The notes: a model not told the origin generated them from the letters alone. A stretch of DNA of 64,000 nt from an uncultured Actinomycetota bacterium (GCA_963718235.1 CAVQYR010000001.1:1152001-1216000); one strand, 5' to 3'. Numbered from the stretch's first letter, positions 24,121 to 41,263 are shown. Translations and numbers: made by a program.

Positions 24121-24190
24121 CCACCCGGCCCAGCCCGTAAGTGCCGATAGGGAGTGGTCCGACACCGACCGAGCAGGCCCGTGTCACGGG

Positions 24191-24508
24191 CTAGGAACCG
24201 GGCATGTCCAGCATCTGCAAGATCTCGATCGAGCCGATCTGGTTGTGGGGGTGACCCGAGAGCACAGCTCGGACCGCATCCACGTCCTCGGCTTGGAGGA
24301 TCGAGTACCCGCCGACCCAGCCCGCCGGACCCGGGTCCTCATCGCTCGTCGGTTGGGTCGGGACGCCCCAGTCGACGAGAGCATCCCCAGCGGCCGCACC
24401 CCAAGCCATCCAGGCGTCCATGCTCGCCTGGCGCTCCTCGGGGGTCGTGCTCGCCATCTGCTCACCCATGGACATCGTGGAGCGGTAGAGCACAAGGAAC
24501 TTCTGCAT
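24191..24508 (-). CDS. YciI-like protein
   Basis: KFLVLYR...WMAW...GGYSILQAED...HPH; GAGGA RBS. Confidence 0.75.
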   Translation of the reverse strand: MQKFLVLYRSTMSMGEQMASTTPEERQASMDAWMAWGAAAGDALVDWGVPTQPTSDEDPGPAGWVGGYSILQAEDVDAVRAVLSGHPHNQIGSIEILQMLDMPGS

Positions 24509-24967
24509 GGCTTAGTCCTCTCGGTTGAGGCCCACGGCGAATGCCGGAGACCGTCAGCGTCGCCCAGCCGCGCCTTCATGGCAAGGGTCAACTGCAAGCA
24601 CTCAGGCGACGCGAGGCACCCTGCCGATGTGCCGTTAGGCATCATCCGCGTTGAGGGGTCGTCAGGCTCGACCTGGGGCGTCGTCGAGGTAACAGTCGGT
24701 GTGCCGGGAGATGGGCTTGAACGCGCCGAGGCTCTCCTTGCCGGGCGGCTGGTGGATGACCAGGGCCTCGCCCGCGGCGGGTCGTGCATAGGGCCGATCG
24801 CTGGTGCAGACCGAGCGCGTTGTCCGGCATCTGGCGCGGCTTACGAGCGCCTGGGGACCTATGGCCCAGTGAAGTCGGTCTGATTCGAGACGAGCATGGG
24901 TCGGGGCGGTCGCATGAGCCCGACAGTGTTGCCGCTTCTTCCGGAGCCTGGAAGGAGGTCGGTGTCG

Positions 24968-25921: not shown

Positions 25922-25999
25922 TCGAGCCAAAGCCGACAGCCCCCAAGGAAGAGCTGAGGGCCGCACCGAGGTGCCGTTCGGCGCGGTCCGGTTGCACGT

Positions 26000-26180
26000 A
26001 TCGCTGGGTAGATCGCTGCTCGGCCAAGGACGATGCCCTATCGCCCTCGGCCGCTATGCCGAGGCCGCACCCGTCCTGCAGCAGGCGCGGATCATCTTCG
26101 AAGGACTCCACGCCACCCCCGCCCTCGCCCTCGCCGACATCGACAACCTCCTCGGCGAAGCCACCGCGCTGAGTTCCTGA
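26000..26180 (+). pseudogene. C-terminal TPR-like fragment of a larger protein
   Basis: LLGQGRC.IALGRYAEAAPVLQQARIIF with no credible start. Confidence 0.45.
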
Positions 26181-26243
26181 GCTGTCTGGGCGGGATCGAC
26201 CGGTGGCCTCGTTCCGTCCGTTCAACTGCCGATCGTGTGTTTC

Positions 26244-26430
26244 TCAGGCCGCTGAACCCCAGCGGGCAGACCGAAGCCCCCGGTACACCGACGCCCGACT
26301 CACCCCGAGCACCCGCGCGATGGTGGCGACGTCATGCTCACCGGACTCGTGCATCGCCTTCGCAGTGGCCAGCTTCTCCGCAGTCCACACGGTCGGCCGC
26401 CCACCCGTACGGACACGGGCCCGAGCCGCC
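26244..26430 (-). pseudogene. Serine resolvase C-terminal HTH fragment
   Basis: AARAR.RTGGRP...IARVLGVSRASVYRGL. Confidence 0.75.
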
Positions 26431-26540
26431 CCAAACCAGCATGCGGGCGTTCGCGCTTCGGGTCCGCTCGGGCGGGGCGAAGGCCTCTGGGCACCGTCCA
26501 ACCTCGGGGAACATGATGAACCAAGAGCGGGAGGTTAGCC

Positions 26541-26888
26541 ATGAGCGCCCCAGAAGCCGAACGCCCGACCCGAATGCCCTGGCTTCGGCGAGCGTGGGTC
26601 GCCGTCGCCGTGATTCCACTTGTCTTCGTGCTTTCCAGTGCTGTGGGCTTCAGTCTGTACAAGGCGACGAACTCCCCGCGCGAGAACATCGACGCTTCCC
26701 TGTGGATGGACCTGTTCAGCGGCGTGCTGTCCGCCGCGATCTTCCTGGTGCCTTGCGCGGCGGCAGCGATCTACGGGAAGCGGGCGATCAGCGATGACGA
26801 CAGGCGCGGCTTGGTCCCTGCAGTCATCGGGGCACTGGCGGGTCTGGGGTACACGGTCGTCGCACTCGTTGCGCTGATTGCCGCCTAG
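26541..26888 (+). CDS. Small membrane protein
   Basis: Three hydrophobic segments; GGAGG RBS. Confidence 0.7.
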   Translation: MSAPEAERPTRMPWLRRAWVAVAVIPLVFVLSSAVGFSLYKATNSPRENIDASLWMDLFSGVLSAAIFLVPCAAAAIYGKRAISDDDRRGLVPAVIGALAGLGYTVVALVALIAA

Positions 26889-27035
26889 TTGATCTGTTCA
26901 TGGACGCTGTTGACACGAGTTGAGACCTCCGGCGAGGTATTCACTCCCTCTTCCGCTGGGCAAGCACGCGACTGAACCGACCCATGTGCCATTCCAGGGC
27001 TGGTCTGATGGCGTGACGTGAAGCGGTTCTTGGTC

Positions 27036-27440
27036 TTAGAAGACGCCCGCGTGGTGCTCGGCCACCGGTAGGCCGGTGTCGCGCCAGGCCGCCAGGCCGC
27101 CGTCGATGCTGGCGACGCTTTGGTAGCCGATCTGGCTCAGGGTGACTGCGGCCAGGGCGGCTCGTCCCCCGGTGTTGCAGTAGACGATCACGCGTCGGGT
27201 CGGGTCCAAGCCCACCTGCAGGCTGGCCGGGAGTCGAGGGCCGCATTCTGGGTCGGCGACGAACTCCAATAGCCCCCGGGGCACCAGGACGGCCCCGGAG
27301 ATGTGGACCTCCGACTCGTTCGGTTCGCGGACGTCGACTAGCAGTGGCACACCGGTTGCCAACTCGTTCTGGGCGTCCTGGGGTGAGATGAGTTCGATGC
27401 TGGTCTTGGCTTGCTCCACCAGGTCACGGGTGGACTTCAT
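27036..27440 (-). CDS. Rhodanese-like domain protein
   Basis: LVDVREPNE, VPRGLLEF, YCNTGGR, GGLAAW. Confidence 0.88.
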   Translation of the reverse strand: MKSTRDLVEQAKTSIELISPQDAQNELATGVPLLVDVREPNESEVHISGAVLVPRGLLEFVADPECGPRLPASLQVGLDPTRRVIVYCNTGGRAALAAVTLSQIGYQSVASIDGGLAAWRDTGLPVAEHHAGVF

Positions 27441-27563
27441 GGCGCACCACACCTTCTGTCGGAGGCGGTCCGGCCGACCTCACTGCCTCCAGGCTGCCCA
27501 GCCGCAACCCACCAGCGATAGGACCGATGGTCCGGACCTGGAACGGCTGTCCACCACCCCGAA

Positions 27564-27868
27564 GTGCCGATATGCAGCGCTCAGGTGGATTCCTGCGGCG
27601 CTCGTCTGGGCTCGCTTGGTCACCCGGGGCGGACAGCGACGGGCACTGCGTTGAGCGACGACGAAGGCGGTACTGCGAGCGTGGTGAGTGACCTTCGGGC
27701 TCTCCTAGTGACCGTTGGCTATTCCACGCTCCCGTTCAGCGATGAAGCCTCTGACGTGGAATGTGATGCCGCTGATTCCGCCCCGCACGTGGCGTCGATC
27801 GGCGTTTGCGCTGGTCAGGGATCTGGAGCGGGTGACCGGGATCGAACCGGCATGGCCAGCTTGGAAGG
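27564..27868. repeat. 305-bp direct repeat, copy 1 (element end plus att/tRNA-Gly 3' half at 27824-27868)
   Basis: Near-identical to 39373-39677. Confidence 0.95.
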
Positions 27869-27997
27869 GCGGGCTTGTCCGGGTCGTGTCCAAGTCGGTG
27901 ACCTGCAGTCCCTCGTCTTCAGGGGTGTTCTGCACACCTCCTTGTGGGGGCCTCGTGGAAGGAGCAGGGGTCTCTCACGGTCACCAAGGAGGACGAA

Positions 27998-29407
27998 GTG
28001 ATGAAGGACCCCACGATTCACGGCTGGGACGACGGCAAGCATCTCGCTGCAGCAACCGGCGGCGGGCATGACGAGCCTCCTTCTGGTCTCTCGGCTGTCC
28101 GGATTTCCGGGACGACGGGACTGACAGATGGAGGTGTGCACAATGCAGGCGAAGACCGAGGGCCTGGGCCGCGCAAGGCCGCCGGTCGCAGGCGGTCACG
28201 GCGGGTGTTCGGGACGGTGGAGCGGTTGCCGTCGGGTCGGTTCCGGGCTCGGGTGATCGGTCCGGATGGTCGGTATGTGTCGGCGCCGGCGACGTTCGCG
28301 AACCGGACGGATGCTTCGTTGTGGGTGGACGTGCAGCACGCCGACCTGGTTCGCGGCAGTTGGCGGGCGCCGGTCATGGTGTCGGCGTCACCATCGGTGG
28401 CCGTTTACGTGGCGCGGTGGATCGAGGAGCATCCGACCGCCAGGGAGTCGACCAAGGAGCTGTACCGGGGCCTGTTACGCACCTGCATCACCCCGACCAT
28501 GGGTCGCGCCTCGGTGGCGGGGCTGACTGCTGCGGCTGTGAGGCGCTAGCGCCACGCCCTGGGGGAGCGGCTGGCCGCAGACGCCGAACGCCGCCGCGCT
28601 GACCTGCAGACCAAGGGTCGGCAGGGGAGTGCGGCGTCGGTGCGGGACGGCGGCGCGAGGCAGGCGCAGGCGTACCGGTTGCTGCGGGCGGCGATGACCG
28701 CCGCGGTCGGTGATGGGCTGCTGCAGGCGAACCCGTGCACGATCCGCGGCGGCGCCGTCCCGCGTCGGGCGCTCGGCCGGTCTCGGCCGGTCACGGAGCG
28801 TCTGCTTTCCCCGGCCCAGGTCGCCGACGCGGCGGCAGCGATGCCCGCGAGGTATCGGGTGCTGGTGCTGATGGCGGCCTGGTCGGGATTGCGCCAAGGC
28901 GAGCTTCTCGCCCTGACCCGGGCCGACCTGGACCTGGATGCGCTCCCGGCGCGAGTGATGGTTCGCAAGGCGGTGCGCCGCACCGACACCGGCCAGGTGC
29001 GGGTCGATGTGCCTAAGACCGCGTCCTCGGTGCGCACGGTCACGTTGCCCGACCCGCTCACTGGGGCCCTACGGGGACATCTGGAGGAGTTCGTGGCCCT
29101 CGATCGTGAGGCATTGGTGTTCGCCACTCGTACCGGCACGACCCCGGCCCGGTCCAACCTCGGCGCCACCTGGCGCCGCGCCTGCATCAGCGCCGGCGTT
29201 CCACTGGTCCGGTTGCACGACCTACGCCACGTCGCCCAGGTGTTCGCTGCAGAGGCCGGCGCTACCCTGCCCGAGCTGATGGCCAGACTCGGCCACGCCA
29301 CCCCCGCCGCCGCACTGGTGTACCTGCACGCCCGGACCGACCGCGACCTGAAACTCACCCAAGCTCTGGCCACCGCGATGACCGACGCGGCCGGCGCCTC
29401 CGGCTAG
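27998..29407 (+). pseudogene. Tyrosine integrase with a single in-frame TAG at 28547-28549
   Basis: Both ORF halves share a frame; GLRQGELLAL, PKT, HDLRH, LGH, Y motifs; arm-binding-type N-terminus. Confidence 0.88.
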
Positions 29408-29502
29408 CCGAAGCTGACAACGATCCCTGATCAGTGAGCGAATAGTGAGGCGAGCGCGAACGGCACTTCGGTGCGCTCTTTGGGGGCCGCCGACGAGCCC
29501 CC

Positions 29503-29886
29503 TCAGGCGAGAGCAGCCGCATTGGCTGCCTGATCCTCCTGGATGGCCCAGCATTCGACGGCCTTGCCGTCTCGGACGTGCCAGACGAACACGGTTCGGC
29601 CTGAGAAGTGGCGCGGCTTGTCGAACCCGGCTTCTGTCATGACCACGACGTGGTCATCGTCGGCCAGGATCGCGTGGATCTCCTGGTGGAACGTCCCTTC
29701 GGTGATTTGCGCGAGCTTGCCGAAAAGGCCGAATACCTCGTCTCGCCCATGGAAGTCACCACTCAGCACGCTGGTTCCCGGTGCATGCCACGCAATGTCA
29801 TCGGAGAACAGCCCGGCGATGGTATCCATGTCGCCCTTGGCGAATGCCTCGAAGCCCGACTGGATCAACTCAGCGTTTGGGTGCAT
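29503..29886 (-). CDS. SnoaL/NTF2-like protein
   Basis: FEAFAKGDM...DIAWHAPG...HVRDGK. Confidence 0.88.
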   Translation of the reverse strand: MHPNAELIQSGFEAFAKGDMDTIAGLFSDDIAWHAPGTSVLSGDFHGRDEVFGLFGKLAQITEGTFHQEIHAILADDDHVVVMTEAGFDKPRHFSGRTVFVWHVRDGKAVECWAIQEDQAANAAALA

Positions 29887-30019
29887 GTGCGGACTCCCCT
29901 CAAGGGGCCGCAGACGCAGCCCTTGGGCACGGTCTTACACCCTCCTCATGAGGCGGTCAACGGCTTCCTCTGCTCAGAGGGTGGCGTGCACCAGATCGGC
30001 ACATCGGTTCGGGTCCCGC

Positions 30020-30661
30020 CTAGGTCACCTTGAGGATGATGTCCTTCAACTCGATGAGAGCCGCAACCCGATAGGTCGCCGCTGAGAAGTCTTGTCCACT
30101 CGAGAAGTCGTTGTGGACAACGGCGCAGTCGATACCGGCCGCCACGGCCGAGGTCAGTCCTCTGGAGGAATCCTCGACCACCAACGTCTCTTCCTTGGTG
30201 GCTCCGAAGCGCTTCAAGCCGGTCAAGTACGGCTCCGGGTGCGGCTTGGCGTGCTCGTAGTCCTCGCGAACTAGGACGAAGTCCATGAACTTCCTGATCT
30301 GCCGCTTCTCATGGATGAGGTCGAAGTCGACCTTCTTTGCCGTTGTCACGATGGCCATATGGACGAACATCGACAACTCAGCAAGAGCCTCTGCGACACC
30401 ATCGATCTCAATGGCCTCGGTTCTCAGATACTCCTGGTAGTAGCGGTCGCGAACCTCACGCTGTCTGCTGATCGTCTGCTCATCGACGCCCGCGGCCCTG
30501 GCTTGCGCCCAAGTGCCCAGCCCCAGGTTCATATCGCGGAGGTAGCGGTCTCTTTCCAAGATCACACCGATGTCCTCTAGGGCGCGCTCCCCGGCTTTGA
30601 AGTACCAGAATTCGGTGTCGACAAGGACCCCGTCGTGGTCGAAGAGGACGTACTGCTTCAC
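30020..30661 (-). CDS. HAD family phosphatase
   Basis: LFDHDGVLVDTE, KPHPEPY, VVEDS. Confidence 0.92.
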   Translation of the reverse strand: MKQYVLFDHDGVLVDTEFWYFKAGERALEDIGVILERDRYLRDMNLGLGTWAQARAAGVDEQTISRQREVRDRYYQEYLRTEAIEIDGVAEALAELSMFVHMAIVTTAKKVDFDLIHEKRQIRKFMDFVLVREDYEHAKPHPEPYLTGLKRFGATKEETLVVEDSSRGLTSAVAAGIDCAVVHNDFSSGQDFSAATYRVAALIELKDIILKVT

Positions 30662-30771
30662 TCCCGATTCCTTCCGCCATCCGCCCCAGGACACCTCAAC
30701 GGACGGACCGATGATGCCGTTTCATCGCCCCGTGAGGCGAGCCATAGCGGCACGTCGGCAGCGGAGCGCTC

Positions 30772-31059
30772 TCAGGCGTCGGCCTGGATCTCCACGACGC
30801 GCAGCCCCGCCCGCTCGATCCCAACCTCCGCCTGAGCCGGCGCGTTGGCGGTTACTGCCGCGAGGAACCCGCGTGCCTGCTCAAGGGTCTCGAAGACGAT
30901 GAACGTGACACTCACGTCCGGCTCGTCCACGTCGCCCGCCCAGAACCCCCGGACGAATCCTGGGTTCTGGCTCACACCCGCGACGAGCTTCGGCAGCAGC
31001 CCGGCCTGCTCCTCCCTCATCGAGTTGTCCATTCGCCACGTCCCGGCAACGGCAAACAT
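30772..31059 (-). CDS. Small hypothetical protein (dimeric alpha-beta barrel-like)
   Basis: PGFVRGFW; GGGAG RBS. Confidence 0.7.
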   Translation of the reverse strand: MFAVAGTWRMDNSMREEQAGLLPKLVAGVSQNPGFVRGFWAGDVDEPDVSVTFIVFETLEQARGFLAAVTANAPAQAEVGIERAGLRVVEIQADA

Positions 31060-31266
31060 CAGACTCCCCTCTCGCGATGACGCCAGCAGGACTTGCCATT
31101 CTGCCGTGAGCGCGTGAAGGCGCTAGTGCCTTCTCTTGTCCGATTCATGCGAGAACGGCACGTGACGCGCTACGTCCGCGCTGGTTGCAGGGCGGTTAGT
31201 CTGGCCGAACGAGCCAACTCGGCTCCGCAGTCGTCAACGATACGACGAGCCACCCCGGGAGCACTC

Positions 31267-31731
31267 ATGAGCAGCTTCGACGCCACCAACGGCACCCGTG
31301 GTGCACGGCAGCCCGGCGGCGCCCTTATGGCGTGGTTCAACAAGCGCATGGCCAAGCGGATCCGCGGTGGCGGCGGCAAGGCGCTGGGCCTCGATCCGCT
31401 GCTGCTCATCACCCTGGGGGCCAAGTCGGGCCAAACCCGCGAGACGCCCGTCGCCCGCTTCGCCGGCCCTGACGGCTCCTGGTACGTCGTCGCCTCGGCC
31501 AACGGCGCCGCACGCAACCCGGCCTGGTACTACAACGTCGCCGCCCACCCAGACCAGATCCGCATCGTGATCGACGGGGTCGAGACACCGGTGACGGCGC
31601 AACAACTCCACGGCGACGACCGCGCAGAGGCCTGGAAAGCGATCACACAGGCTCAGGCCCGGTTCGCCAAGTACGAGACCAAGACTGACCGAGACATCCC
31701 AGTCATCCAGCTCACCCCACGTTCGGCCTAG
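31267..31731 (+). CDS. Deazaflavin-dependent nitroreductase family (Ddn/DUF385)
   Basis: GAKSGQTRETP, VASANGAARNPAWYYN, TDRDIPV. Confidence 0.9.
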   Translation: MSSFDATNGTRGARQPGGALMAWFNKRMAKRIRGGGGKALGLDPLLLITLGAKSGQTRETPVARFAGPDGSWYVVASANGAARNPAWYYNVAAHPDQIRIVIDGVETPVTAQQLHGDDRAEAWKAITQAQARFAKYETKTDRDIPVIQLTPRSA

Positions 31732-31837
31732 ATCAGCCTCGTCCCCGAGTTCAACCGCCATGTCCCGCGAGCACCGCGTCAGAACGGCACATCGGGGCGG
31801 CTCGTAGCGGCAAGCGATCGGCGTATCTGCGACACGG

Positions 31838-32362
31838 CTACAGCGTCACCACTTCCTCCACCTCGCCCGTGGCCGTGTTGGTGATCCCGACGGACGCAAC
31901 GACGGAGTGGATCGGGTGATAGCCGAGCACGGCACCCATGGCGACCAGGACCTGCCGGGGGCCCAGCCGCTGCGTCAGCGTGCAATGCGGCACCCAGCGG
32001 CCCGGCCGGTAGTACTCCCACGGCTCCTGGGCGCCTTGCGCGAGGATCTCGTGAACCCGCTGGTGGAGTCTGAGGAGTCGCCCTTCAGTGGTCACCGCGA
32101 GGAATATGGCGCCCTCCTCCCCTGGGAAAGTGCCCAGGGTATGCAGGTCAAGGCGGATGGGCGCTTCCACGAGGACTGAGCGCAGGGCATCGCGGCTCAC
32201 GGCCGCGAGCGACTCCGCGATGCCTAGGGTGACGTGGGGTCGGTGCCTGCCGTGTGTCTGGCCAGCCAGGCTGGGGACACCGGCAGCGTCGATGCGAGCC
32301 CACAGCCGACGGACGTCGCGTTCCGCGGCCTCGTCGAGGAACATCTCAAGTGCCTGCGCCAT
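31838..32362 (-). CDS. 2H phosphoesterase (2'-5' RNA ligase family)
   Basis: Two HxT motifs: PHVTL and PHCTL. Confidence 0.88.
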   Translation of the reverse strand: MAQALEMFLDEAAERDVRRLWARIDAAGVPSLAGQTHGRHRPHVTLGIAESLAAVSRDALRSVLVEAPIRLDLHTLGTFPGEEGAIFLAVTTEGRLLRLHQRVHEILAQGAQEPWEYYRPGRWVPHCTLTQRLGPRQVLVAMGAVLGYHPIHSVVASVGITNTATGEVEEVVTL

Positions 32363-32461
32363 GCCTCCCCCTCACCCGAGTGATACTGCCGGATCGACAC
32401 CCAGCGAGACGATCGCGAACGGCACATCGCGGGCGGTCGATTGCGATCACCTGACTGACGG

Positions 32462-32998
32462 CTACTGCCCGGTGACACCGTCGATGGACTCGCGGAGCAG
32501 ATCAGCGTGGCCGTTGTGGCGCGCGTGCTCCTCGATGAGATGGCACAGGATCCATCGCAGCGAAACGCGCTGGCCATCCTCCTGCTCCTCGGAGAGGGCG
32601 GGCAGGCCATCAGGTCCCGCCAAGGCATCTGCCACCACCCCGTCCGACACCGCGACAGATTCCTCGAACCAGGCGAAGAGCTGCTCTGGCTCAGCCCCGG
32701 CCGCCGTGGCGAAGGACCAGCTGGGGTCCTCAGGGTCCATCTCCGCCAACCATGACGGTCGCGCGACCCCGCCCGCAAACGTCAGGTTGAGCCAGCCCGC
32801 CTCCACCACCGAAAGGTGCTTCAGCAGGCCACCCAGAGTCATCGTGGTTGGTGCCAGCGGAGTCGAGAGTTGGATCTTGGTGAGGCCTGAGCACTTCCAA
32901 CGCAACGTGTCGCGCTGGTAGTTGAGGAATCCCAACAGCGTGGCGGCCTCATCTTGTGCGACTGGAGGATCTACACGGTCATCAGCACCGAACATCAT
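32462..32998 (-). CDS. DinB/DUF664 family protein
   Basis: WKCSGL, GLLKHL..VE, HLIEEHARHNGHADLLRE. Confidence 0.9.
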   Translation of the reverse strand: MMFGADDRVDPPVAQDEAATLLGFLNYQRDTLRWKCSGLTKIQLSTPLAPTTMTLGGLLKHLSVVEAGWLNLTFAGGVARPSWLAEMDPEDPSWSFATAAGAEPEQLFAWFEESVAVSDGVVADALAGPDGLPALSEEQEDGQRVSLRWILCHLIEEHARHNGHADLLRESIDGVTGQ

Positions 32999-33122
32999 CG
33001 CGCGACCGTAGCAACGCCTTCGACGTTTGGCGAGGCACCGAGGAGGCGATCGCGAAGACCGGTTGGCTCGTCAGAAGACGATGCAGATCGGCACGTCGGA
33101 GCGGTTCTGGCATCCTGCCGTG

Positions 33123-33599
33123 ATGACCGTGGACGCTGTGACATGGCGCAACACCCGACCGAAGAAGCGCGTAGGCGCTGGTGTGCTCGTCCGTGACGAG
33201 AAGGGTCGAGTGCTGCTGGTCGAGCCGACCTACAAGGAGTCCTGGGAGATCCCTGGCGGGTCGGTGGAAGCCGACGAGTCACCGCGGACTACCTGCGCAC
33301 GCGAGGTCGAGGAAGAACTCGGACTCAGGCGCGGCGTCGGACGGCTGTTGTGCATGGAATGGCAAGGGCCGGCCCCCGATCGCAGCGAGTCCCTGATGTT
33401 CATCTACGACGGCGGCGTGGTCTCAGACCCCTCTGCCATCCGTCTCCCATCCGACGAACTGGCTTCGTTCAGGTTCGTCGACCCGGGCGAGTTGGACGCC
33501 TTGATGGTGGAGCGACTTGCGCGTCGGATTCGTGCCGCTCTCAGGGCGCTCGCCGATGACACTGTGGCTGAACTGGAAGACGGGGCACCCGGCGAGTAG
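33123..33599 (+). CDS. NUDIX hydrolase
   Basis: Nudix box GGSVEADESPRTTCAREVEEELG. Confidence 0.92.
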   Translation: MTVDAVTWRNTRPKKRVGAGVLVRDEKGRVLLVEPTYKESWEIPGGSVEADESPRTTCAREVEEELGLRRGVGRLLCMEWQGPAPDRSESLMFIYDGGVVSDPSAIRLPSDELASFRFVDPGELDALMVERLARRIRAALRALADDTVAELEDGAPGE

Positions 33600-33686
33600 A
33601 AGGTTCGTTCGCGCGACGTAGGCGAGAGCGAATGCCGGATCTTGTTGCACGAATGCGAACGAGAACGGCACTTCGGCGCGGCTGGC

Positions 33687-34295
33687 CTACGGCTTGGTCC
33701 ACTCCAACGAGTAGCGGTAGTACGCACGACGGCGCAGCCTGGCACCTGGGAGCGGGAGCCGGGCCTGGTCGCGAATGTCTGTCAGCGTTTCTGATGGCTC
33801 GACGGTTGGCACGTCGTCGGGCCACTGCTCGTGGCGCAGCGCTCCGACAACGCGAGCCCGGGGTATCGAGGCCACGGCGAACGCGAAGTCCGCCTTCGAC
33901 GCGATCCGCGTGAGACCGAGGACGTAGAGCCGGCCACCGGGGCGAAGCAGTCGCACGCATCGACGAAGTGCGGCGCTGGTGTCCATGTGGTGGAGGGTCG
34001 CAACGACAGCGACGAAGCCGAAGGACGACTCGTCGAGGCTGGCCTCGTCGAACGTGCACTCGACGAGGTTCACGTTGGTCAGGTTAGCGCAGCGTCGCCG
34101 GGCCCGCTCAGCTGCTTGCGGGTCCGGCTCGATCCCGACGACGTGCCGTCCTGTGCGAGCCATGCGCGACAACAGCAGTCCATCGCCGCACCCGATGTCC
34201 AGCACATCCCCGACCGTCTCGTCGCACCGACGAAGGATCTCTACGTGGAAGGCCGTGTTGTGGTTCCAGTACGCATCAGGCGACTCGGGAACCAC
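33687..34295 (-). CDS. Class I SAM-dependent methyltransferase
   Basis: VLDIGCGDG, LHHM, LRPGG. Confidence 0.9.
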   Translation of the reverse strand: MVPESPDAYWNHNTAFHVEILRRCDETVGDVLDIGCGDGLLLSRMARTGRHVVGIEPDPQAAERARRRCANLTNVNLVECTFDEASLDESSFGFVAVVATLHHMDTSAALRRCVRLLRPGGRLYVLGLTRIASKADFAFAVASIPRARVVGALRHEQWPDDVPTVEPSETLTDIRDQARLPLPGARLRRRAYYRYSLEWTKP

Positions 34296-34324
34296 CCGAG
34301 CGATACTGCCGGGTCTCGCGCCTT

Positions 34325-34418
34325 GGGTTCAAGGAAGTGACGCAACACCCTGAGTTGTAGGGGTGTTGGATTGATGGGTCGTCCGAAGTTTCCGAAGCAG
34401 TTCGAGCGGTCGTTCTGG
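34325..34418 (+). mobile_element. Possible IS30-family left-end remnant
   Basis: GGTTCAA-N8-CGCAACAC resembles actinobacterial IS30 termini as I recall them; followed by ATG 34374 reading MGRPKFPKQFERSFW. Confidence 0.45.
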
Positions 34419-34511
34419 GCGAGCGAGAACGGCACATCCGTGCCGTGAATCGGTTGGGTAGGGCTGCCCGTAGGCCCGTTGGGCCGTCGGTCACCACAGG
34501 GTGAGTGAGGA

Positions 34512-34940
34512 TCAAGTGTTGTTCACGATGCGTTGCCCGAGCGAGCAGTCGGAGGACACTCCGCCGTAGTCGAGACAGACGCGAGGGCGGACATCCAGGA
34601 TCTTGCGATGACGGCGGTAGATGTTGTAGTAGGAGACGTCGCCGTGGTCGCCACCCGCGCAGCCCTCGCCGTTGTTGAGCCACTCCGTCGAACCGTGGGA
34701 GCCATTGGCGAAGTCGATCACGAAGTTGCCCTTGACTCCCTTTCCGTCACACGACAGGTCGACCACGTCGACCTTCACTTGGAACTTCGAAGCGCCGTCG
34801 AAACCGACGGACCCCGACATCGTTCCATGACCGTTGCCGGTTTGGATCATGAAGTCTTGCCAGATGCCAGCCTGGGCTGTTGAGGGAGCGAGAAGACCGC
34901 CGACAAGCCCAACCGCGATCACATACCTTCGCAACCTCAT
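34512..34940 (-). CDS. Small secreted Cys-containing hypothetical protein
   Basis: Signal peptide ending AQA; four cysteines in the mature part. Confidence 0.7.
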   Translation of the reverse strand: MRLRRYVIAVGLVGGLLAPSTAQAGIWQDFMIQTGNGHGTMSGSVGFDGASKFQVKVDVVDLSCDGKGVKGNFVIDFANGSHGSTEWLNNGEGCAGGDHGDVSYYNIYRRHRKILDVRPRVCLDYGGVSSDCSLGQRIVNNT

Positions 34941-34979
34941 CTGGACACCACCGCCAAGAGGACCGGTACCGTGCGTCCA

Positions 34980-35180
34980 ATCGTAGTCCGACGCCTCGCC
35001 GAATGTCGGCGATCTCATCCCAGGCCACCCACCGCCGCGGAGCGGTGGGCGGCTGACCTCGGCATCCCCGCCTACGCCATCGACGAGCAGACGGCCATCA
35101 AGGTCGTCGACGGCTCCGTCGAGGTGATCTCCGAGGGGCAGTGGACACCGTTCGGGGTCACGGCCGCCGAGCAGTCGTGA
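34980..35180 (+). pseudogene. C-terminal fragment of peptidase E (S51)-like gene
   Basis: AERWAA...PAYAIDEQTAIKVVDGSVEVISEGQW. Confidence 0.65.
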
Positions 35181-35347
35181 AGGCGCGCCGTGGCACAAGA
35201 CCCGGCGGCAAGCGGGATCCTCACTCCGGACGTCGCTGTACAGGTCGTCGCATCAGTCCGAGCCCAAGCGGACGTGCCGATCGGCTCGCCCCGCGTGGCG
35301 TCGGCAAGCTCGTTGCCCCGCGACATTCAGCCTCCTACCCTGACCGG

Positions 35348-35944
35348 GTGACGGAAGCGGACCTGAAGTCTGTCCTCGTCGGTCGTCTCGACCGGCTCAA
35401 CCAGGCTGTCCAGCACAAGCTCGAGGGTCTGTCGGAGTACGACTTGCGCCGACCGATGACCCCGACCGCGACCAACCTGCTCGGCGTCACGATGCATCTT
35501 GCCAGCCTGCAGTCGGAGTACTTCGGCAAGACCTTCGGCAACCCCTTCCCGCGAGAAGACGAGTTGTACTTCCTCACCGACGAGGACGCCGACCCGCAGG
35601 ACGACCTCTGGGTTCGCCCGGAGGCGACGTCGGAGTGGGTGGTCGGGCTCTATCGCGCCACCTGGGATCACGCCATGGAGACATTCGCGACGCTGGACCT
35701 GGACTCGCCGGGTCAGATTCCGACGAGTCCCTACGCGGAGGTCACACTCGGCGAGATGCTGGTGCACATGGTCGACGAGACCGCTCGCCACGTGGGACAC
35801 ATGGACATCGTGCGTGAGTTGATCGATGGTGCTGTCGGCAGGCACGCCGGCGACGGGAACATCATCGACGGCTATGACTGGGCTGCGTACCGGAGACGCG
35901 TGGAGGCCGGAGCCCGGGAGGCCGAGGAACGCGCCGAGTCCTGA
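35348..35944 (+). CDS. DinB/DUF664 family protein
   Basis: KLEGLSEYDLRRPMTPTATNLLG, ETARHVGHMDIVRELIDG. Confidence 0.9.
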   Translation: MTEADLKSVLVGRLDRLNQAVQHKLEGLSEYDLRRPMTPTATNLLGVTMHLASLQSEYFGKTFGNPFPREDELYFLTDEDADPQDDLWVRPEATSEWVVGLYRATWDHAMETFATLDLDSPGQIPTSPYAEVTLGEMLVHMVDETARHVGHMDIVRELIDGAVGRHAGDGNIIDGYDWAAYRRRVEAGAREAEERAES

Positions 35945-36059
35945 GTTCAGTGCGCCACTCGGCCTGAAGCATCACCGACCGATCCGAAGTGCCGTTCTCG
36001 TTCGCTTCCGTGCAACAAGATCCGGCAACGCGCTCGCCTGCGAAGGGCATGATGCAGGC

Positions 36060-36959
36060 GTGAAGATGCACGAGGGCGAACTCGACGTCAATGCTGAGTT
36101 GGTTCGACGGTTGGTTGCGGACCAGTTCCCGCAGTGGTCGGATCTGCCGATCGTTCACGTCGCACCTGCGGGCTCTGTGAATGTCATCTTTCGGGTGGGC
36201 GATTCATTGGCCGCCAGGTTTCCACTCCAAGCGGGCGACCCGGAAGAAGTCCGAGATTGGCTGATGCAAGAGGCTCGGGCAGCGTCTGAGTTCGCGGCCG
36301 TGTCGCCCGTTCGGTCGCCGAGGCCCATGGCGCTGGGAGAGCCAGGGCATGGCTATCCGCTGTCGTGGACGGTCCAGGACTGGCTACCCGGGCGCGACGC
36401 CATCGCGGAAGATCCTGCAGTGTCCGCGGCCTTCGCGCTGGAACTCGCGGATCTGCTGGCCTGTCTGCGTGAGGCAGACACGGGAGGGCGGCGTTTCTCG
36501 GGTGGAGGGCGCGGGGGCCATCTACCAGACCACGACGAGTGGATGGACCTGTGCTTCGCCAAGAGTGTGGGACTCGTCGACGTGGAGACATTGCGGGGTC
36601 TCTGGGAGAGCCTGCGGGTCCTTCCTGAGGTTGACGAGGACGTCATGTGTCACGGCGATCTGACTCCGCAGAACGTGCTGGTCGATGCGGGCCACTTGGT
36701 GGGAGTCCTCGACACTGGCGGCTTCGATGCGGCGGATCCGGCGCTCGATCTGGTGTCGGTCTGGCACCTGCTCGATTACGAGCGCCGGGAACTGGTCCGG
36801 CAACACTTGAAGTGCGGCGACGTTCAGTGGCATCGCGGGATGGCGTGGGCTCTCCAGCAAGCGATGGGTCTCGTCTGGTATTACGCCGAGACGAACCCGA
36901 TCATGAGTCGGTGGGGCCTACGGACTCTGGATCGCCTCGTGGGCGCGTCCGCCGCCTAA
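36060..36959 (+). CDS. Aminoglycoside phosphotransferase (APH) family protein
   Basis: LVADQFPQW, HGDLTPQNVLV, VLD.G, DPALDL. Confidence 0.9.
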   Translation: MKMHEGELDVNAELVRRLVADQFPQWSDLPIVHVAPAGSVNVIFRVGDSLAARFPLQAGDPEEVRDWLMQEARAASEFAAVSPVRSPRPMALGEPGHGYPLSWTVQDWLPGRDAIAEDPAVSAAFALELADLLACLREADTGGRRFSGGGRGGHLPDHDEWMDLCFAKSVGLVDVETLRGLWESLRVLPEVDEDVMCHGDLTPQNVLVDAGHLVGVLDTGGFDAADPALDLVSVWHLLDYERRELVRQHLKCGDVQWHRGMAWALQQAMGLVWYYAETNPIMSRWGLRTLDRLVGASAA

Positions 36960-37066
36960 GTGCCGTTCTGGCTCGGTCACTTTCGCAGGATCCGGCATCC
37001 GGTGCTGCACCTTGGCGCCGCTTGGTGCGCTACCCGCCGACGCGCTCGCCGCGCTATCGTTCGAGA

Positions 37067-37681
37067 GTGTCAGCCACGATCATCGGCGTCCCCATGGAAC
37101 ACCTCATCCCGGCTGGGATACTCGGCCCGGATCCCGTGACCGTGAACGTGCGAGCCTTCTTCGTGCCCCACGAAACCGGTCTTACGCTCGTGGACACCGG
37201 GCTGGACCCCGGTGGGGAGGCCCTCGATCTGGCATTGGCAGACGCCGGAGCGTTATGGACGGATGTCTCGGATGTCGTGATCACCCACGCCCATCCCGAT
37301 CACGTCGGGGCCCTCGACCATGTGCGCGTGGCAGCGCCCCAAGCCCGGATTCACTCCAACCCTGCCGAGGGGATGGCTGGGACGCTGCCCCTGTGGGACG
37401 GGGACACCGTGAACAGCCTGCGGGCGATAGCGACTCCGGGGCATACGGCAGGGCACCTGAGCTTGATCGATGAGAGCCAAGCGACGCTGCTGGTTGGGGA
37501 CTGTCTAGGCGTGGTCGACGGGCAGCTCGTGCGGGCCCCTGCGCAGTTCACCGCAGACGGCGAGCAGGCCGAGGCGTCACTCCATCGCCTGCTCAGCATG
37601 CGCGGGTCTCGAATGCTGTTCGCCCACGGCGAGGAGCTCTCTGAACCGTGGGCCGACCTTGAGGTCCTCCTCCCAGACTGA
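37067..37681 (+). CDS. MBL-fold metallo-hydrolase
   Basis: LVDTG, THAHPDHVG, TPGHTAGH, GD, HG. Confidence 0.9.
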   Translation: MSATIIGVPMEHLIPAGILGPDPVTVNVRAFFVPHETGLTLVDTGLDPGGEALDLALADAGALWTDVSDVVITHAHPDHVGALDHVRVAAPQARIHSNPAEGMAGTLPLWDGDTVNSLRAIATPGHTAGHLSLIDESQATLLVGDCLGVVDGQLVRAPAQFTADGEQAEASLHRLLSMRGSRMLFAHGEELSEPWADLEVLLPD

Positions 37682-37892
37682 TCAAATCGCGCTCCACGGC
37701 TGGGCACGATTCGGCGGAGTGCCGTACTCACGCGCTTCGGTGAGAACGAACCGGCGTCCGCGCTCGTCGGCTTGTGTGACCCCTGCCGGCACCCGCCGGC
37801 CACTGCTAGGGGTCAAACTGATGAATCTGTCCGCGCGCTCCGGCCGAGCGTGACCGCTGGGCGGATCTGTCACACGGGACCGGGAGGCCATC

Positions 37893-38303
37893 GTGGTAGC
37901 CGACGAGAATGTTGCAGCTGTGCGGGACTTCATCGAGCGGGCGTGGAACGGCGGTGACGAGTCGGTCTTCGAGGAGCACCTTTCTGTGGATTTCCCGCTT
38001 CCGGGAGGCCGAGACGGGTTCAAGCGAATGATCTTCAAGTACCGGCAGGCGTTCGCGGACTTCCACATGGAGGTGCACGACATGTTCGGTGCGGAGGACA
38101 AAGTCGTGACCGTGCTGACGATGCGCGGAACACATGTGGGCGAGTTCCTCGGCGTGGCTCCGACTGGCCGGAGCATGTCGATCTCCGGCATAGCCGTGGA
38201 CATCATGCGCGACGGCCAACGTGTCGGTGGTGGCGCGCAACTAGATCACCTCGGGTTACTCCAACAGCTCGGAGCAGTCAGCGGGGCGTGCTCGATGTTC
38301 TGA
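37893..38303 (+). CDS. SnoaL-like ester cyclase
   Basis: AFADFH...GTHVGEFLGVAPTGR...LLQQLG; GGAGG RBS. Confidence 0.88.
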   Translation: MVADENVAAVRDFIERAWNGGDESVFEEHLSVDFPLPGGRDGFKRMIFKYRQAFADFHMEVHDMFGAEDKVVTVLTMRGTHVGEFLGVAPTGRSMSISGIAVDIMRDGQRVGGGAQLDHLGLLQQLGAVSGACSMF

Positions 38304-38535
38304 CACAGTTCATAGCCGTGCCGTGTGACGGCAGCCGTGAACAGCGCAAGCCGAGTTCGCTCGAACCCGTCACGGCGACCACTGTTCGAGGCCATCTGCG
38401 ACCGGACAACCGACGTCACATGACCGCGCAGATGTGCTGTTATCCAGCGCGTCATGAAGTGCTGATCCGGCATTCGCGCTCGTCTCGCCGTGTAACCAGT
38501 TGGCCGGTTGACCGCTGGCCGATGTACTTGACCTC

Positions 38536-39372
38536 ATGCCGTGCAACGTCCTTGTTACCGGCCAGCGTGGACTGATCGGCCTGTACGTCGTAGCGGAGTT
38601 GGAACGTCAGGGGCACATTCCTGTGGGCTTTGATCTCCAGGACGGCCAGGACGTGCGCGACCGCACTGCGTTAGCGGCTTCGCTGTCAGGCTGCGACGCC
38701 GTGATCCACCTTGCCGCCGCTGATGACCCGCTACCGGCTGAGGTGATCGTGGACAGCATCGTGGTCGGAACCATGAACCTTCTGGATCTTGCGGTGGCCC
38801 AGGGGTGCCATCGGGTGGTCATTGCCTCGAGCGTGGACGCACTCGGGATCTTCATGAGCAAGGCACCTCCGGACTATCTGCCGATCGACGATGCGCATCC
38901 CGCCCGTCCGGGAACCCCATACGGGGCCGCAAAGCGGGCCGCCGAACTTCTGGCGGAACGGGTCGCCGCTTCCACTGACCTAGAGGTGATCTGCCTCCGA
39001 CCGCCCGGCGTCTGTGACGACGCAACGATGGCCAAGATTCGCGCCAATCGCGTCGAGCGTGCCTCCTATGAATGGGAACCGATCTGGGAGTACAGCGCCT
39101 GGATCCATGTCGAGGATCTCGCCCGCGCCCTTGTGGCTGCCTGCTTCTGCCCGCGCTCTCCCGGCTCGTTCGCCTGCGTGCTGGTGGCAGCCTCGGATGT
39201 CAACTCCGATGAGCACTCGGGTCGTGATCTCGCTGCCGTCGTCCATCCCACGGTGCCGTGGCGAGGAGGAGCCGAGTACCACACCGATCCCCGACGATCG
39301 CTCATCGACTCGACGAAGGCCGTCGAGATGCTGGGGTGGGCTTCGAGGATCCTGTGGACCGACCGAACCTAG
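38536..39372 (+). CDS. NAD-dependent epimerase/dehydratase
   Basis: VLVTGQRGLIG, VIHLAA, YGAAK. Confidence 0.9.
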   Translation: MPCNVLVTGQRGLIGLYVVAELERQGHIPVGFDLQDGQDVRDRTALAASLSGCDAVIHLAAADDPLPAEVIVDSIVVGTMNLLDLAVAQGCHRVVIASSVDALGIFMSKAPPDYLPIDDAHPARPGTPYGAAKRAAELLAERVAASTDLEVICLRPPGVCDDATMAKIRANRVERASYEWEPIWEYSAWIHVEDLARALVAACFCPRSPGSFACVLVAASDVNSDEHSGRDLAAVVHPTVPWRGGAEYHTDPRRSLIDSTKAVEMLGWASRILWTDRT

Positions 39373-39677
39373 GTGCCGATATGCAGCGCTGAGGTCGATT
39401 CCTGCGGCGCTCGTCTGGGCTCGCTTGGTCACCCGGGGCGGACAGCGACGGGCACTGCGTTGAGCGACGACGAAGGCGGTACTGCGAGCGTGGTGAGTGA
39501 CCTTCGGGCTCTCCTAGTGACCGTTGGCTATTCCACGCTCCCGTTCAGCGATGAAGCCTCTGACGTGGAATGTGATGCCGCTGATTCCGCCCGGCACGTG
39601 GCGTCGATCGGCGTTTGCGCTGGTCAGGGATCTGGAGCGGGTGACCGGGATCGAACCGGCATGGCCAGCTTGGAAGG
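39373..39677. repeat. 305-bp direct repeat, copy 2
   Basis: Near-identical to 27564-27868; includes the tRNA-Gly 3' half. Confidence 0.95.
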
Positions 39678-39706
39678 CTGGGGCTCTACCATTGAGCTAC
39701 ACCCGC
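39633..39706 (-). tRNA. tRNA-Gly (TCC)
   Basis: GCGGGTGTAGCTCAATGGTAGAGC...CCAGC-CTTCCAA-GCTGG...GGTTCGATCCC...CACCCGCTCCA cloverleaf. Confidence 0.97.
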
Positions 39707-39767
39707 GTGAGCGGACCCTCGCCTTGGCGGTGGCCCGACGGCGTCCTCTAGACTACGGGACCAGCCG

Positions 39768-39840
39768 CGGGGCGTAGCGTAGTGGCTAGCGCGCCTGCTT
39801 TGGGGGCAGGAGATCGGGAGTTCGAGTCTCCCCGCCCCGA
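39768..39840 (+). tRNA. tRNA-Pro (TGG), CCA not encoded
   Basis: CGGGGCG acceptor stem, CCTGC-TTTGGGG-GCAGG anticodon arm, GTTCGAGTC T-loop; upstream of tig. Confidence 0.95.
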
Positions 39841-39916
39841 CTGCCTGCTGCACCACCAGTCAACGCACCACCACCGGTCGCTGGCGCATGCCGCCACGAC
39901 GAACGAGGAGAGAGTC

Positions 39917-41263
39917 GTGAAGAGCAGCGTCGAGAGCCTCGGGCCCACGCGTGTGAAGCTGACCGTCGAGGTGCCCTTCGACGAGCTCAAGCCGACCCTT
40001 GACCAGGCCTACCGTCGGATCGGCTCCCAGGTCACGATCCCGGGCTTCCGCAAGGGCAAGGTGCCGGCGCGGATCATCGACCAGCGGGTCGGCCGCGGCG
40101 CGGTGCTGGAGGAGGCGGTCAACGAGGCGCTGCCCAAGGCCTACAGCCAGGCCGTCGAGGAGAACTCGGTCAAGGTCATCGGCCAGCCGCAGGTCGACGT
40201 GACGAGCTTCGAGGACGGCGCCGACCTCACTTTCACCGCGGAAGTCGACGTCCGCCCCGACATCGAGCTGCCCGCCTTCGACACCCTGCACGTCACCGTG
40301 GCCGACGCCGTGGTCTCCGAGTCCGACATCGACGAGCAGATCGAGACGCTGCGCGCCCGGTTCGCCACGCTCAAGCCCGTCGAGCGGGCCGCCGCCAATG
40401 GTGACTTCGTCCAGATCGACCTGGCCAGCACCCACGACGACGAGCCGGTCGAGACGCTGTCGGCCACCGGCATGTCCTACGAGGTCGGCTCCGGGACGCT
40501 GCTGGACAACCTCGACGACGCACTGCTCGGCCTGTCAGCCGGAGAGAGTGGGGCCTTCACGACCACACCAGGTGTAGGCGACCTGGAGGGCGAGGCGGTG
40601 GATGTCACCGTCACCGTCACCGCCGTCCGCGAGCGCGAGCTGCCCGAGGTCGACGACGACTTCGCGTCCACCGTCAGCGAGTTCGACACCCTCGACGAGC
40701 TGCGGGACGCCGTACGCGAGGAGCTGAACCCCCGCAAGCAGGTCGAGCAGCTGATGGCCGCCCGCGACGCTGTGCTCGAGGCGCTGGTCGCCTCTGTTGA
40801 GGTGCCCCTGCCCGAGCATGTGGCCGCGGAGGCCGTCGAGGCACACTTCGAGGACGGCCACGGAGACGAGGCGCACCGCGAGGAGTACGTCGGCCAGGTC
40901 CGCGAGGCCTTGAAGAAGGACCTCGTGCTCGACGCCGTCGCCGACGCCGACGACACCCAGGTGACCCAGGCCGAGCTCGCCGAGTACATCGTGCGCCAGG
41001 CGCCTCAGTACGGCATGACGCCCGACCAGTTCGCCCAGGCACTCACCCAGTCGGGTCAGGTCGGCTCGGTGTTCGCCGACGTCCGCCGGGCCAAGGCGCT
41101 GTCGGTCGTCCTCGAGGCCGCCACGGTCATGGACGAGTCCGGGAACCCGGTCGACCTCAGCCCGGCCGCCTCGTCCGAGGACGATTCGGCTGAGGCCGCT
41201 GACGCGGTCAGCTCCGAGGACTCCGAGGACGCCGGGGCGACTGCAGAGGCGCCGGCGTCCTGA
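39917..41263 (+). CDS. tig: Trigger factor
   Basis: IPGFRKGKVP signature; synteny with clpP. Confidence 0.96.
   Translation: MKSSVESLGPTRVKLTVEVPFDELKPTLDQAYRRIGSQVTIPGFRKGKVPARIIDQRVGRGAVLEEAVNEALPKAYSQAVEENSVKVIGQPQVDVTSFEDGADLTFTAEVDVRPDIELPAFDTLHVTVADAVVSESDIDEQIETLRARFATLKPVERAAANGDFVQIDLASTHDDEPVETLSATGMSYEVGSGTLLDNLDDALLGLSAGESGAFTTTPGVGDLEGEAVDVTVTVTAVRERELPEVDDDFASTVSEFDTLDELRDAVREELNPRKQVEQLMAARDAVLEALVASVEVPLPEHVAAEAVEAHFEDGHGDEAHREEYVGQVREALKKDLVLDAVADADDTQVTQAELAEYIVRQAPQYGMTPDQFAQALTQSGQVGSVFADVRRAKALSVVLEAATVMDESGNPVDLSPAASSEDDSAEAADAVSSEDSEDAGATAEAPAS

Follow-up and report, generated by a model that had tools for sequence, protein, structure and literature searches.

Introduction

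Integrons are the textbook case of a dedicated gene-capture machine and, to our knowledge, are regarded as missing from Actinobacteria. pdif modules and other Xer-dependent elements are small modules with short tyrosine-recombinase sites and no internal recombinase, which depend on an enzyme of the Xer family; their sites have the 11-6-11 layout of dif and alternate in orientation. In shufflons and invertible segments of the Rci/Fim type the gene for a simple tyrosine recombinase lies beside or between inverted sites, and segments of one gene are inverted. Here we consider arrays of gene cassettes in a 64,000-nucleotide stretch of DNA (the window) from an uncultured Actinomycetota bacterium (GCA_963718235.1, CAVQYR010000001.1). 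The window corresponds to positions 1152001-1216000 of contig C1 of the source genome (G000), which comprises 3.17 Mb in two contigs with a G+C content of 70%.

The comparisons described below suggest that the region is probably part of a gene-cassette system that works in the manner of an integron and is built from other parts. The cassettes are joined by a site of up to two elements, unit A with the core GTGCCG and unit B with the core CCGGCA. An earlier note on the window had proposed an unrecognised gene-capture system downstream of an integrase gene. That mobile modules with a motif at their junctions are present stands; the recombinase linked to them, however, is an Xer-like enzyme, of which the window holds a remnant (22616-23368), and not the neighbouring integrase.

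Comparison with described systems

In common with integrons and with clusters of attC sites lacking integron integrases (CALINs), the arrays consist of mostly single, unrelated and mostly co-oriented genes, each followed by a composite site of two inverted core elements with a variable middle, and a simpler site lies beside a tyrosine recombinase gene. Cassettes are common to several arrays with breaks at the core, a recombinase gene is missing from the vicinity of many arrays and the cassette site is targeted by elements of the IS110/IS1111 type. The differences concern the enzyme, the site and the layout. The recombinase is of a plain Xer-like kind, scoring 54-73 bits against NCBIfam model TIGR02249, for which the cut-off is 265, and over the C-terminal part only. 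IntI4 (2a3v) aligns to residues 240-313 of the recombinase whereas XerD aligns over residues 51-302. The cores are GTGCCG and CCGGCA rather than GTTRRRY/RYYYAAC and the sites show no significant fold, in keeping with the earlier view that they are not attC. Arrays run both ways from a recombinase gene placed between inverted sites, breaks fall mostly at the 5′ core and the host belongs to Actinomycetota. The locus is not an integron, as an IntI-type integrase and attC are both absent.

The likeness to pdif modules lies in the small modules, the short sites, the missing internal recombinase and the Xer-family enzyme. The sites here have no XerD arm, however, and stand in direct orientation, and the putative enzyme is a dedicated paralogue distinct from XerC and XerD. 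The position of the recombinase gene recalls shufflons, but whole unrelated genes are arranged here in direct order. A literature search, with subscription journals and supplements outside its reach, found no description of such a cassette system, and a classification of simple tyrosine recombinases (PMC8138268) names no such platform in the parts of it consulted.

Cassettes and break points

Pfam assigns the cassette genes between 29.4 and 39.4 kb of the window to SnoaL_2, HAD_2, F420H2_quin_red (Ddn), 2_5_RNA_ligase2, MST/DinB (two genes), NUDIX, Methyltransf_11, APH, Lactamase_B, SnoaL and Epimerase, which bears out each family in the gene list of the earlier note. The array had been placed at 29427-39409. 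Sites are present there, but this extent is too short; the array continues to the left of the integrase gene with plus-oriented sites at 24141, 24629, 25971 and 27564. G000 holds two main arrays, that of the window (24.1-39.4 kb) and a second at C1:526.3-531.7 kb. The latter carries cassettes for ADH, peptidase S51, HAD, GNAT and a lipoprotein, with neither a tRNA nor a recombinase gene within 20 kb.

Individual cassettes recur in other settings. A copy of the SnoaL cassette (29460-30010) with 90% identity is present among different neighbours in a genome of the same genus (G001:C67), and the MST/DinB cassette (32417-33099) has a counterpart with 97.7% identity at positions 11933-12615 of locus L160 in genome G041. 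The S51-peptidase and lipoprotein cassettes of the second array are found, in another order, in a genome of the same family that is 100% complete (G003). Copies shared between arrays within one genome are 97-99% identical. Overall, recurring cassettes display 78-99% identity across arrays and genomes, with different neighbours.

Six cassette pairs were aligned. The A core marks the 5′ limit of identity in four of them, including one IS110 junction within the core, and the 3′ limit in five. Both ends of the peptidase S51 pair break at GTGCCG(wT), and a 310-bp direct repeat in the window starts at the core. Comparison of cassettes with related genomes, a check put forward in the earlier note, gives breaks mostly at GTGCCG and sometimes at CCGGCA, with neighbours shuffled.

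Metagenomes provide a similar picture. Runs from 14 studies contain parts of 29450-39400, each no more than 30% of the sampled words. Contigs from four runs, of four studies, were placed on this stretch at a threshold of at least 92%. Among the pieces listed, eight of ten internal contig break points are at A cores (30748 twice, 31161, 31790, 33094, 35989, 36965 and 38442) and two are elsewhere (35035 and 37685). Three contig joints, each represented by one contig with a short side of 20-41 nt, were not used as evidence of excision. Cassettes occur at 92-100% identity in sediment and peat samples of several studies. Judged from these alignments, the modules are discrete, mostly single-gene and move as units between arrays and genomes.

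The junction site

Unit A has the consensus cCGAn-GTGCCG-(T/A)T(C/A)T(C/G)G.TCGC, or in short form cCGAn-GTGCCG-wTCTCGnTCGC. Unit B, (GAT)CCGGCAT(TCGCGCTCGCC), also written GATCCGGCAT, provides a second arm about 33 nt downstream of A on approximately half of the sites. Among 114 sites selected from loci other than G000 with a position weight matrix (PWM) derived from the G000 sites, 54 have a B-like arm, which in 36 of them starts 32 or 33 nt past the G of GTGCCG. The six site strings quoted in the earlier note were all located where it put them and its motif is real and lies in the gaps, but the site is larger than described, with a longer A core and with the B arm in about half of the cases. 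Two sites do stand directly at stop codons, the APH and epimerase reading frames ending at 36959 and 39372, respectively, with GTGCCG from the next base.

The pattern CGNNGTGCCGNT occurs 13 times in the window against an expectation of 2.03, and none of 100 shuffles reaches 13. The two-arm pattern GTGCCGN{20,40}CGGCA is weaker, with 10 matches against 4.35 expected and four of 100 shuffles reaching 10. Genome-wide, CCGANGTGCCGNT has 32 matches in 3.17 Mb, 10 of them within 11.4 kb of the window and three at C1:529.6-530.8 kb. A PWM of 27 sites likewise gives 32 matches above 18 bits and none in a reversed-sequence control, with the caveat that the training set is the array sites themselves. 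Its matches outside both arrays lie mostly in coding sequence, as V-P-I/F codons. The comparison of islands with core gaps that the earlier note had called for shows the motif nearly restricted to the two arrays of G000 and not spread over core intergenic regions.

In 16 loci taken together the PWM marks 104 intergenic sites. The 80 same-strand intervals have a median length of 869 bp, and 47 of them hold one called gene. Genes and sites agree in orientation for 75 of 104 genes and the remaining 29 are reversed. Site polarity is nonetheless uniform, and a property of the array is therefore favoured over a per-gene signal. In the window the Ddn and NUDIX genes are on the plus strand amid minus-facing sites; that site orientation is independent of gene orientation had been recognised before. 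At two reversed genes, NUDIX and YCII, a B-like unit in the orientation of the gene itself is positioned just upstream of the start (33100-33124 and 24530-24560, respectively), which suggests that unit B moves along with the gene's 5′ end and that inversion of a single cassette can occur.

The folding of eight sites as DNA was no stronger than that of shuffled sequences (z from -2.0 to +1.2), and an Rfam E-value scan of 23000-40000 returned two tRNAs only, with no match at a junction site. On these grounds a structured RNA or folded single strand was ruled out as the basis of the site.

Distribution across genomes

The family sample comprised 20 genomes, the whole order in the collection. A test pattern is enriched only in G000 (nine matches), G001 (eight) and G003 (three), with 0-2 for controls; 14 genomes of genus g4 show neither enrichment of this pattern nor arrays. 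The genes conserved on the right flank of the second array are found in G001, with no site in the adjoining 3.6 kb. A scan of one genome per species gave 95 loci, mostly chance coding matches (V-P-F-S-I-A codons, for example in Streptomyces transporters), and true sites in only about 10 records of metagenome-assembled genomes (MAGs). The site-bearing MAGs are labelled Actinomycetota, Actinomycetes, Nanopelagicales and Streptomycetales, plus one Acidobacteria. A sequence-only covariance model built from 45 sites (R1) finds 32, 26, 28, 8 and 19 sites in five further MAGs, each with several arrays of uniform polarity.

A candidate recombinase

Clustering of the proteins encoded at 28 array loci yields two recurrent families, an IS110-family transposase and a small Xer-like tyrosine recombinase. 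The latter is our candidate for the cassette recombinase. It has approximately 303-347 amino acids, with core-binding and catalytic domains only, and intact copies carry the catalytic motifs RxxE.., GKGNK, HxLRH and ..RY. The nearest solved structure is that of XerD (1a0p, E 7e-20, aligned over residues 51-302), and the names given to the family in public data are generic only ('XerD', 'tyrosine-type recombinase'). Copies from different genomes share 75-85% identity, and homology between recombinase loci ends at the gene borders. The gene has a copy of unit B on either side, the two inverted relative to each other, and is positioned at the proximal end of an array in G043 (two intact copies), in G045 and in the window, where it is truncated at the N-terminus.

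As an independent test, 80 metagenome loci were fetched by the recombinase protein alone and then searched with R1 at E<=0.1. This search returned 49 sites in 25 loci. With the recombinase gene placed on the plus strand, 31 sites are downstream on the plus strand and 16 upstream on the minus strand, with two exceptions; 47 of 49 thus point away from the gene. Of the 39 loci at or above 75% identity to the query, 23 yielded sites, as opposed to two of the 41 below that value.

In 22 loci the gene is complete or nearly so. Upstream, 20 of these have an outward-reading B unit at a distance of 38-143 nt; downstream, 13 have a B unit at 31-77 nt and the nine others a DUF7711-like gene. Six of the nine extend far enough to show the region beyond that gene, and each has the B unit at +672-679. 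The DUF7711 gene is arranged tail to tail with the small recombinase gene, within the inverted B units, in the window (21995-22603) and in loci L185-L192, L199, L204 and L205; no mention of DUF7711 was found in the literature searched. In the window the element is of the longer form, with the order B unit, DUF7711 gene, recombinase remnant, degenerate B unit and then plus array.

The gene-side half of the flanking B unit is constant within subtypes (GCACCAATAT, CGAGAAAGAA), and the half past CCGGCA is variable (TTCGCGCTCG, GTATCGCTCGGGTG, ATAGGCATCGC, TTCTGACTCGCATG). The same variants occur in the B arms of cassette junctions, as is to be expected of strand exchange between a platform site and cassettes at CCGGCA. 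In locus L207 the same cassette start, a site and about 80 nt, is present on both sides of the recombinase gene in mirror orientation (138-193 and 3273-3326).

Homologues of the recombinase with at least 56% identity are present, mostly broken, in six of nine site-bearing genomes as against none of seven site-poor genomes. For distant homologues (49-68%) an automatic inverted-repeat search finds a clear repeat with the core TGCCGG only in L229 and possibly in L224, and CCGGCA-bearing flanks can be recognised by eye in L218. The tyrosine recombinases of G003 are XerC, XerD and one integrase only. Two other types of mobile system were considered and rejected. A serine recombinase (PF00239) is lacking in site-bearing G003 and G042, which rules out a serine-recombinase system. 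The Y1 (HUH) transposase PF01797 was detected in none of eight genomes and the motif is confined to arrays, ruling out repetitive extragenic palindromes or interspersed mosaic elements (REP/BIME) with a REP-associated transposase (RAYT).

The tRNA-Gly island

The two copies of the 310-bp direct repeat (27564-27876 and 39373-39686) are 99% identical and extend from the first base of a GTGCCG core into the anticodon loop of tRNA-Gly(tcc). Because the repeat ends in this loop, 27877-39632 is an island integrated into tRNA-Gly, with its integrase gene beside the displaced tRNA fragment. It has a tyrosine integrase gene, an adjoining repeat of the 3′ part of the tRNA and an intact tRNA at the far end. 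With this integrase, the 310-bp repeat and three 3′ fragments of tRNA-Gly, the window holds an island of the tRNA-targeting kind, a class that includes tandem accretion at one tRNA. The cassette arrays depart from this class in that their junction motif does not consist of a piece of tRNA, tRNAs are not near all of them and the island integrase is unlinked to the motif. In four arrays of other genomes the distal end is 85-580 nt from the 3′ end of the gene for tmRNA, tRNA-Pro(cgg), tRNA-Gly(tcc) or tRNA-Val(gac), as in the window, which may stem from carriage on tRNA-targeting islands or from a preference of the system itself; some arrays are distant from any tRNA.

IS110-family elements at the junctions

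The second protein family recurring at array loci belongs to insertion sequences (ISs) of the IS110 family (PF01548 and PF02371; NF033542 179.7 bits against a cut-off of 140). All seven copies examined are inserted exactly in GTG-CC-G, so that ..GTGCC borders one end and (C)CG(W)T.. the other, and each has an internal GA(A/T)(A/G)TGCC stretch in its left non-coding end. PF01548 is present in seven of eight array genomes compared with one weak match in eight others; G003, which is complete and has arrays, lacks IS110. In the consulted parts of two papers, IS1111 elements target attC and IS110/IS1111 elements also target REP sites (PMC11187229, PMC11208160). By analogy we read the IS110-family elements here as parasites of the junction site. 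The likeness is that RNA-guided elements of the DEDD type occupy one fixed position of a repeated host site. The target site, however, is new, and such behaviour explains the insertions at junctions but not the cassettes. A DEDD transposase, a non-coding guide region and a fixed target position characterise the inserted elements and not the cassettes.

On the other contig of the source genome (G000:C2:380597-381987) one of these seven IS110-family elements, with a frameshifted transposase gene, interrupts a junction site, GCGATGTGCC preceding and CCGTTCGCGGTCGC following the element, and a SnoaL-like gene comes next. This combination points to a third, small cassette locus.

A model for cassette movement

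We propose that the recombinase would bind both units, which have the right half TTC.CG.TCGC in common and differ in the 6-nt core, GTGCCG as opposed to CCGGCA. Integration of a circular cassette (A-spacer-B) would proceed by strand exchange at CCGGCA with the B unit that adjoins the recombinase gene, in analogy to attI x attC. Outward from the point of integration the order would be B - gene - A..B - gene - A..B, which is the order observed, and two inverted B units would give rise to two diverging arrays whose sites face outward from the recombinase gene. Pairs of like cores, A x A at GTGCCG or B x B at CCGGCA, would serve for excision and reshuffling, and A x A exchange would account for most of the break points.

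On this reading the array at 24141-27564 of the window first ran up to tRNA-Gly, and the island 27877-39632 was inserted later, bringing with it two diverging arrays that have no recombinase gene themselves. The window arrays are probably relics that are no longer active, much like attC clusters that lack an integrase, because the only recombinase copy is truncated and none is placed between the diverging arrays of the island.

Several observations weigh against this model. All support for it is comparative, the PWM and the covariance model were partly trained on the sites of the window itself, and the genomes compared are mostly MAGs. The A core has a weak inverted flank only (CGAA..TTCG), the A and B cores are approximately 28 nt apart as opposed to the 6-8-bp spacing of a classical tyrosine-recombinase core, and the sites (eight, as DNA) fold no better than shuffles. 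The break points have no single fixed position. In the SnoaL and L160/L164 pairs the 5′ break is about 25-38 nt past GTGCCG, near the B arm, and the 3′ break of one pair is just before the B arm. Homologous recombination at conserved repeats of 15-45 nt could produce similar break points. The candidate recombinase is truncated or split in G000, G001, G005, G041 and G045 and intact only in G043; G003, G042 and G044 have arrays and no copy of it.

Alternative explanations

The motif might instead be a signal that flanks genes, such as a promoter, operator, terminator or RNA element, with shuffling due to homologous or illegitimate recombination and no dedicated site-specific recombinase. The sequence past GTGCCG does travel with the downstream gene, several start codons are preceded at 15-25 nt by a B arm (34305 and 32385 are examples), breaks occur at either conserved block and many arrays have no recombinase nearby. 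We nevertheless consider this unlikely, given a site polarity that is uniform across arrays while 29 of 104 genes are reversed, the absence of the motif from core intergenic regions and the lack of an Rfam match or significant fold. It would also leave unexplained the divergent sites (47 of 49) and the inverted B units around one recombinase clade. It is quite unlikely, too, that the bridge- or seek-RNA guided IS110-family recombinases themselves move the cassettes, the 14-16-nt A motif being an RNA-specified target and the cassettes non-autonomous passengers. The size of the A motif would suit such a target, the insertion is exact in all seven copies, the internal GA(A/T)(A/G)TGCC segment resembles a target guide and PF01548 is concentrated in array genomes. 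Arrays are nonetheless present in G003, which has no IS110, and their polarity is centred on the tyrosine recombinase and not on IS copies. The IS ends (..GGGGAA / TACCTG..) are unlike the cassette ends, a cassette circle would offer target rather than donor sequence, and the B-arm junctions are left unexplained. The targeting of host repeats is a known parasitic behaviour of IS110/IS1111 in the consulted parts of PMC11187229.

Two other tyrosine recombinases should be considered. Host XerC and XerD might move the cassettes in the manner of pdif modules or of elements that exploit Xer; no other tyrosine recombinases are common to all array genomes, and G003 adds one integrase. When the host dif (C1:1739238-1739259) was compared with the junction sites, the 7-nt GCCGATA of its XerC-side arm was found in one A variant, GTGCCGATA, and nothing further; the majority variant GTGCCGTTC matches dif less well, and the sites have neither a counterpart of the XerD arm nor the 11-6-11 layout. 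A Xer/dif-type site was rejected on this comparison. The arrays are also far from dif and 14 related genomes of genus g4 have Xer but no arrays, which makes a role for XerC/XerD very improbable. The version suggested by the earlier note, that the tyrosine integrase at 27944-29407 serves the array with the site at 29466 as its attI, is largely refuted and retains only the slightest likelihood. The gene directly adjoins the array, that site being 60 nt past its stop codon, and in L175 and L168 the distal array end faces the 3′ end of an integrase gene of the same type. It has, however, an in-frame TAG and tRNA-Gly attachment repeats that extend to the anticodon loop, and the part at 28640-29407 matches no integron-integrase model. 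Homologues with 79-84% identity in G013, G014 and G018 reside in islands with the same attachment repeats and no motif match above 13 bits. This type of integrase is absent from array-bearing G001 and arrays elsewhere lack it. The integrase is a bystander to the cassette system.

Set beside these alternatives, the Xer-like cassette recombinase remains the explanation that we favour. A more specific proposal, for which we judge the chances to be even, is that it belongs to an undescribed capture platform of uncultured Actinomycetota, independent of integrons. Such a platform would comprise an Xer-like gene flanked by inverted CCGGCA, bidirectional arrays, two exchange cores (CCGGCA and GTGCCG), near-identical cassettes spread across sediment and peat genomes, and its own RNA-guided IS110 parasites.

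Features of the window and related loci

The features are listed in Table 1. Just inside the oldest island boundary (tRNA-Gly fragment 18909-18957) there is a ParE-toxin / Phd-YefM antitoxin pair (19138-19849), adjoined by a gene for a Kelch-repeat protein (20009-21244). The third-position G+C of called genes is 0.75-0.86 over 3500-39400 of the window compared with 0.88-0.94 in the core genes to the right, which may mean that the variable region extends beyond the arrays.

Table 1. Positions of cassette-system and island features. Coordinates refer to the window unless a genome or locus is given.
Feature	Position	Strand	Remarks
3′ part of tRNA-Gly(tcc), third and oldest partial copy	18909-18957		G000:C1:1170909-1170957; 96% to query positions 257-305; earlier island boundary
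Unit B, ATATCCGGCATTAGG on minus strand	21920-21950 (unit 21930-21941)	-	Outer inverted repeat of recombinase element, past DUF7711 gene
DUF7711 gene	21995-22603	+	PF24821, E 1.8e-66, full length; accessory gene of longer element form
Xer-like tyrosine recombinase remnant	22616-23368	-	Residues 67-323 of intact 323-aa relative, 85% identity; N-terminal part missing
Degenerate unit B, GAACCAGCATTAGG	23530-23560 (unit 23541-23554)	+	Other flank of recombinase remnant; start of plus array
Junction site, A core 24141	24136-24186	+	Past 164-aa gene without known family (23626-24120); missed by R1 at E<=1
Junction site, A core 24629	24624-24674	+	Preceding cassette: YCII gene (24191-24508, minus) with own minus B unit at ~24540
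Junction site, A core 25971	25966-26016	+	Past arginase-family gene (24896-25921)
310-bp direct repeat, copy 1	27564-27876	+	First base is A core GTGCCG; ends in partial tRNA-Gly anticodon loop; 99% identical to 39373-39677; left attachment site of island
tRNA-Gly island integrase	27944-29407	+	In-frame TAG 28547-28549
Junction site, A core 29466	29421-29471	-	Distal end of minus array, toward integrase 3′ end; GTGCCGTTC joined directly to GCGCTCGCC
Junction site, A core 30002	29957-30007	-	SnoaL cassette between cores 29466 and 30002
Junction site, both arms, A core 30753	30708-30758	-	
Junction site, A core 31161	31116-31166	-	Contig break at 31161; missed by R1
Junction site, A core 31790	31745-31795	-	
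Junction site, both arms, A core 32425	32380-32430	-	
Junction site, A core 33094	33049-33099	-	Bounds MST/DinB cassette 32417-33099
Junction site, both arms, A core 33671	33626-33676	-	Top R1 match; 90% identical to site 35989
Junction site, A core 34435, B unit ~34305-34330	34305-34446	-	B just upstream of methyltransferase start
Back-to-back A palindrome ACGGCAC ATCC GTGCCGT	34429-34446		Point where minus and plus arrays diverge
Peptidase-S51 cassette 3′ fragment and weak junction site, A core 35274	35036-35319	+	91% identical to second array C1:527887-528141
Junction site, both arms, A core 35989	35984-36034	+	
Junction site, both arms, A core 36960	36955-37005	+	Directly at APH stop codon
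Junction site, A core 37719	37714-37764	+	
Junction site, both arms, A core variant GTGCTG 38434	38429-38479	+	
310-bp repeat, copy 2	39373-39686	+	A core at epimerase stop codon, then 260-nt spacer, then tRNA-Gly(tcc) 3′ part
Intact tRNA-Gly(tcc) gene	39633-39706	-	
Second array	G000:C1:526300-531710 (L001 6300-11710)		~9 junction sites, mostly minus
tRNA/tmRNA genes at distal array ends	L161 9368-9736, L164 14678-14754, L168 6872-6945, L172 5397-5473		

Significance

The system can be searched for in metagenomes through its junction motif and its recombinase clade, and the junctions are natural target sites for bridge-RNA IS110 elements. The cargo consists of small detoxification and stress enzymes: MST/DinB, glyoxalase, YCII, SnoaL, NUDIX and GNAT proteins, APH-like kinases and MBL-fold hydrolases. 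If our interpretation is correct, the recombinase and its site would provide a new pair for genome engineering in high-GC bacteria, and cassette capture would have evolved a second time, from an Xer-like recombinase.

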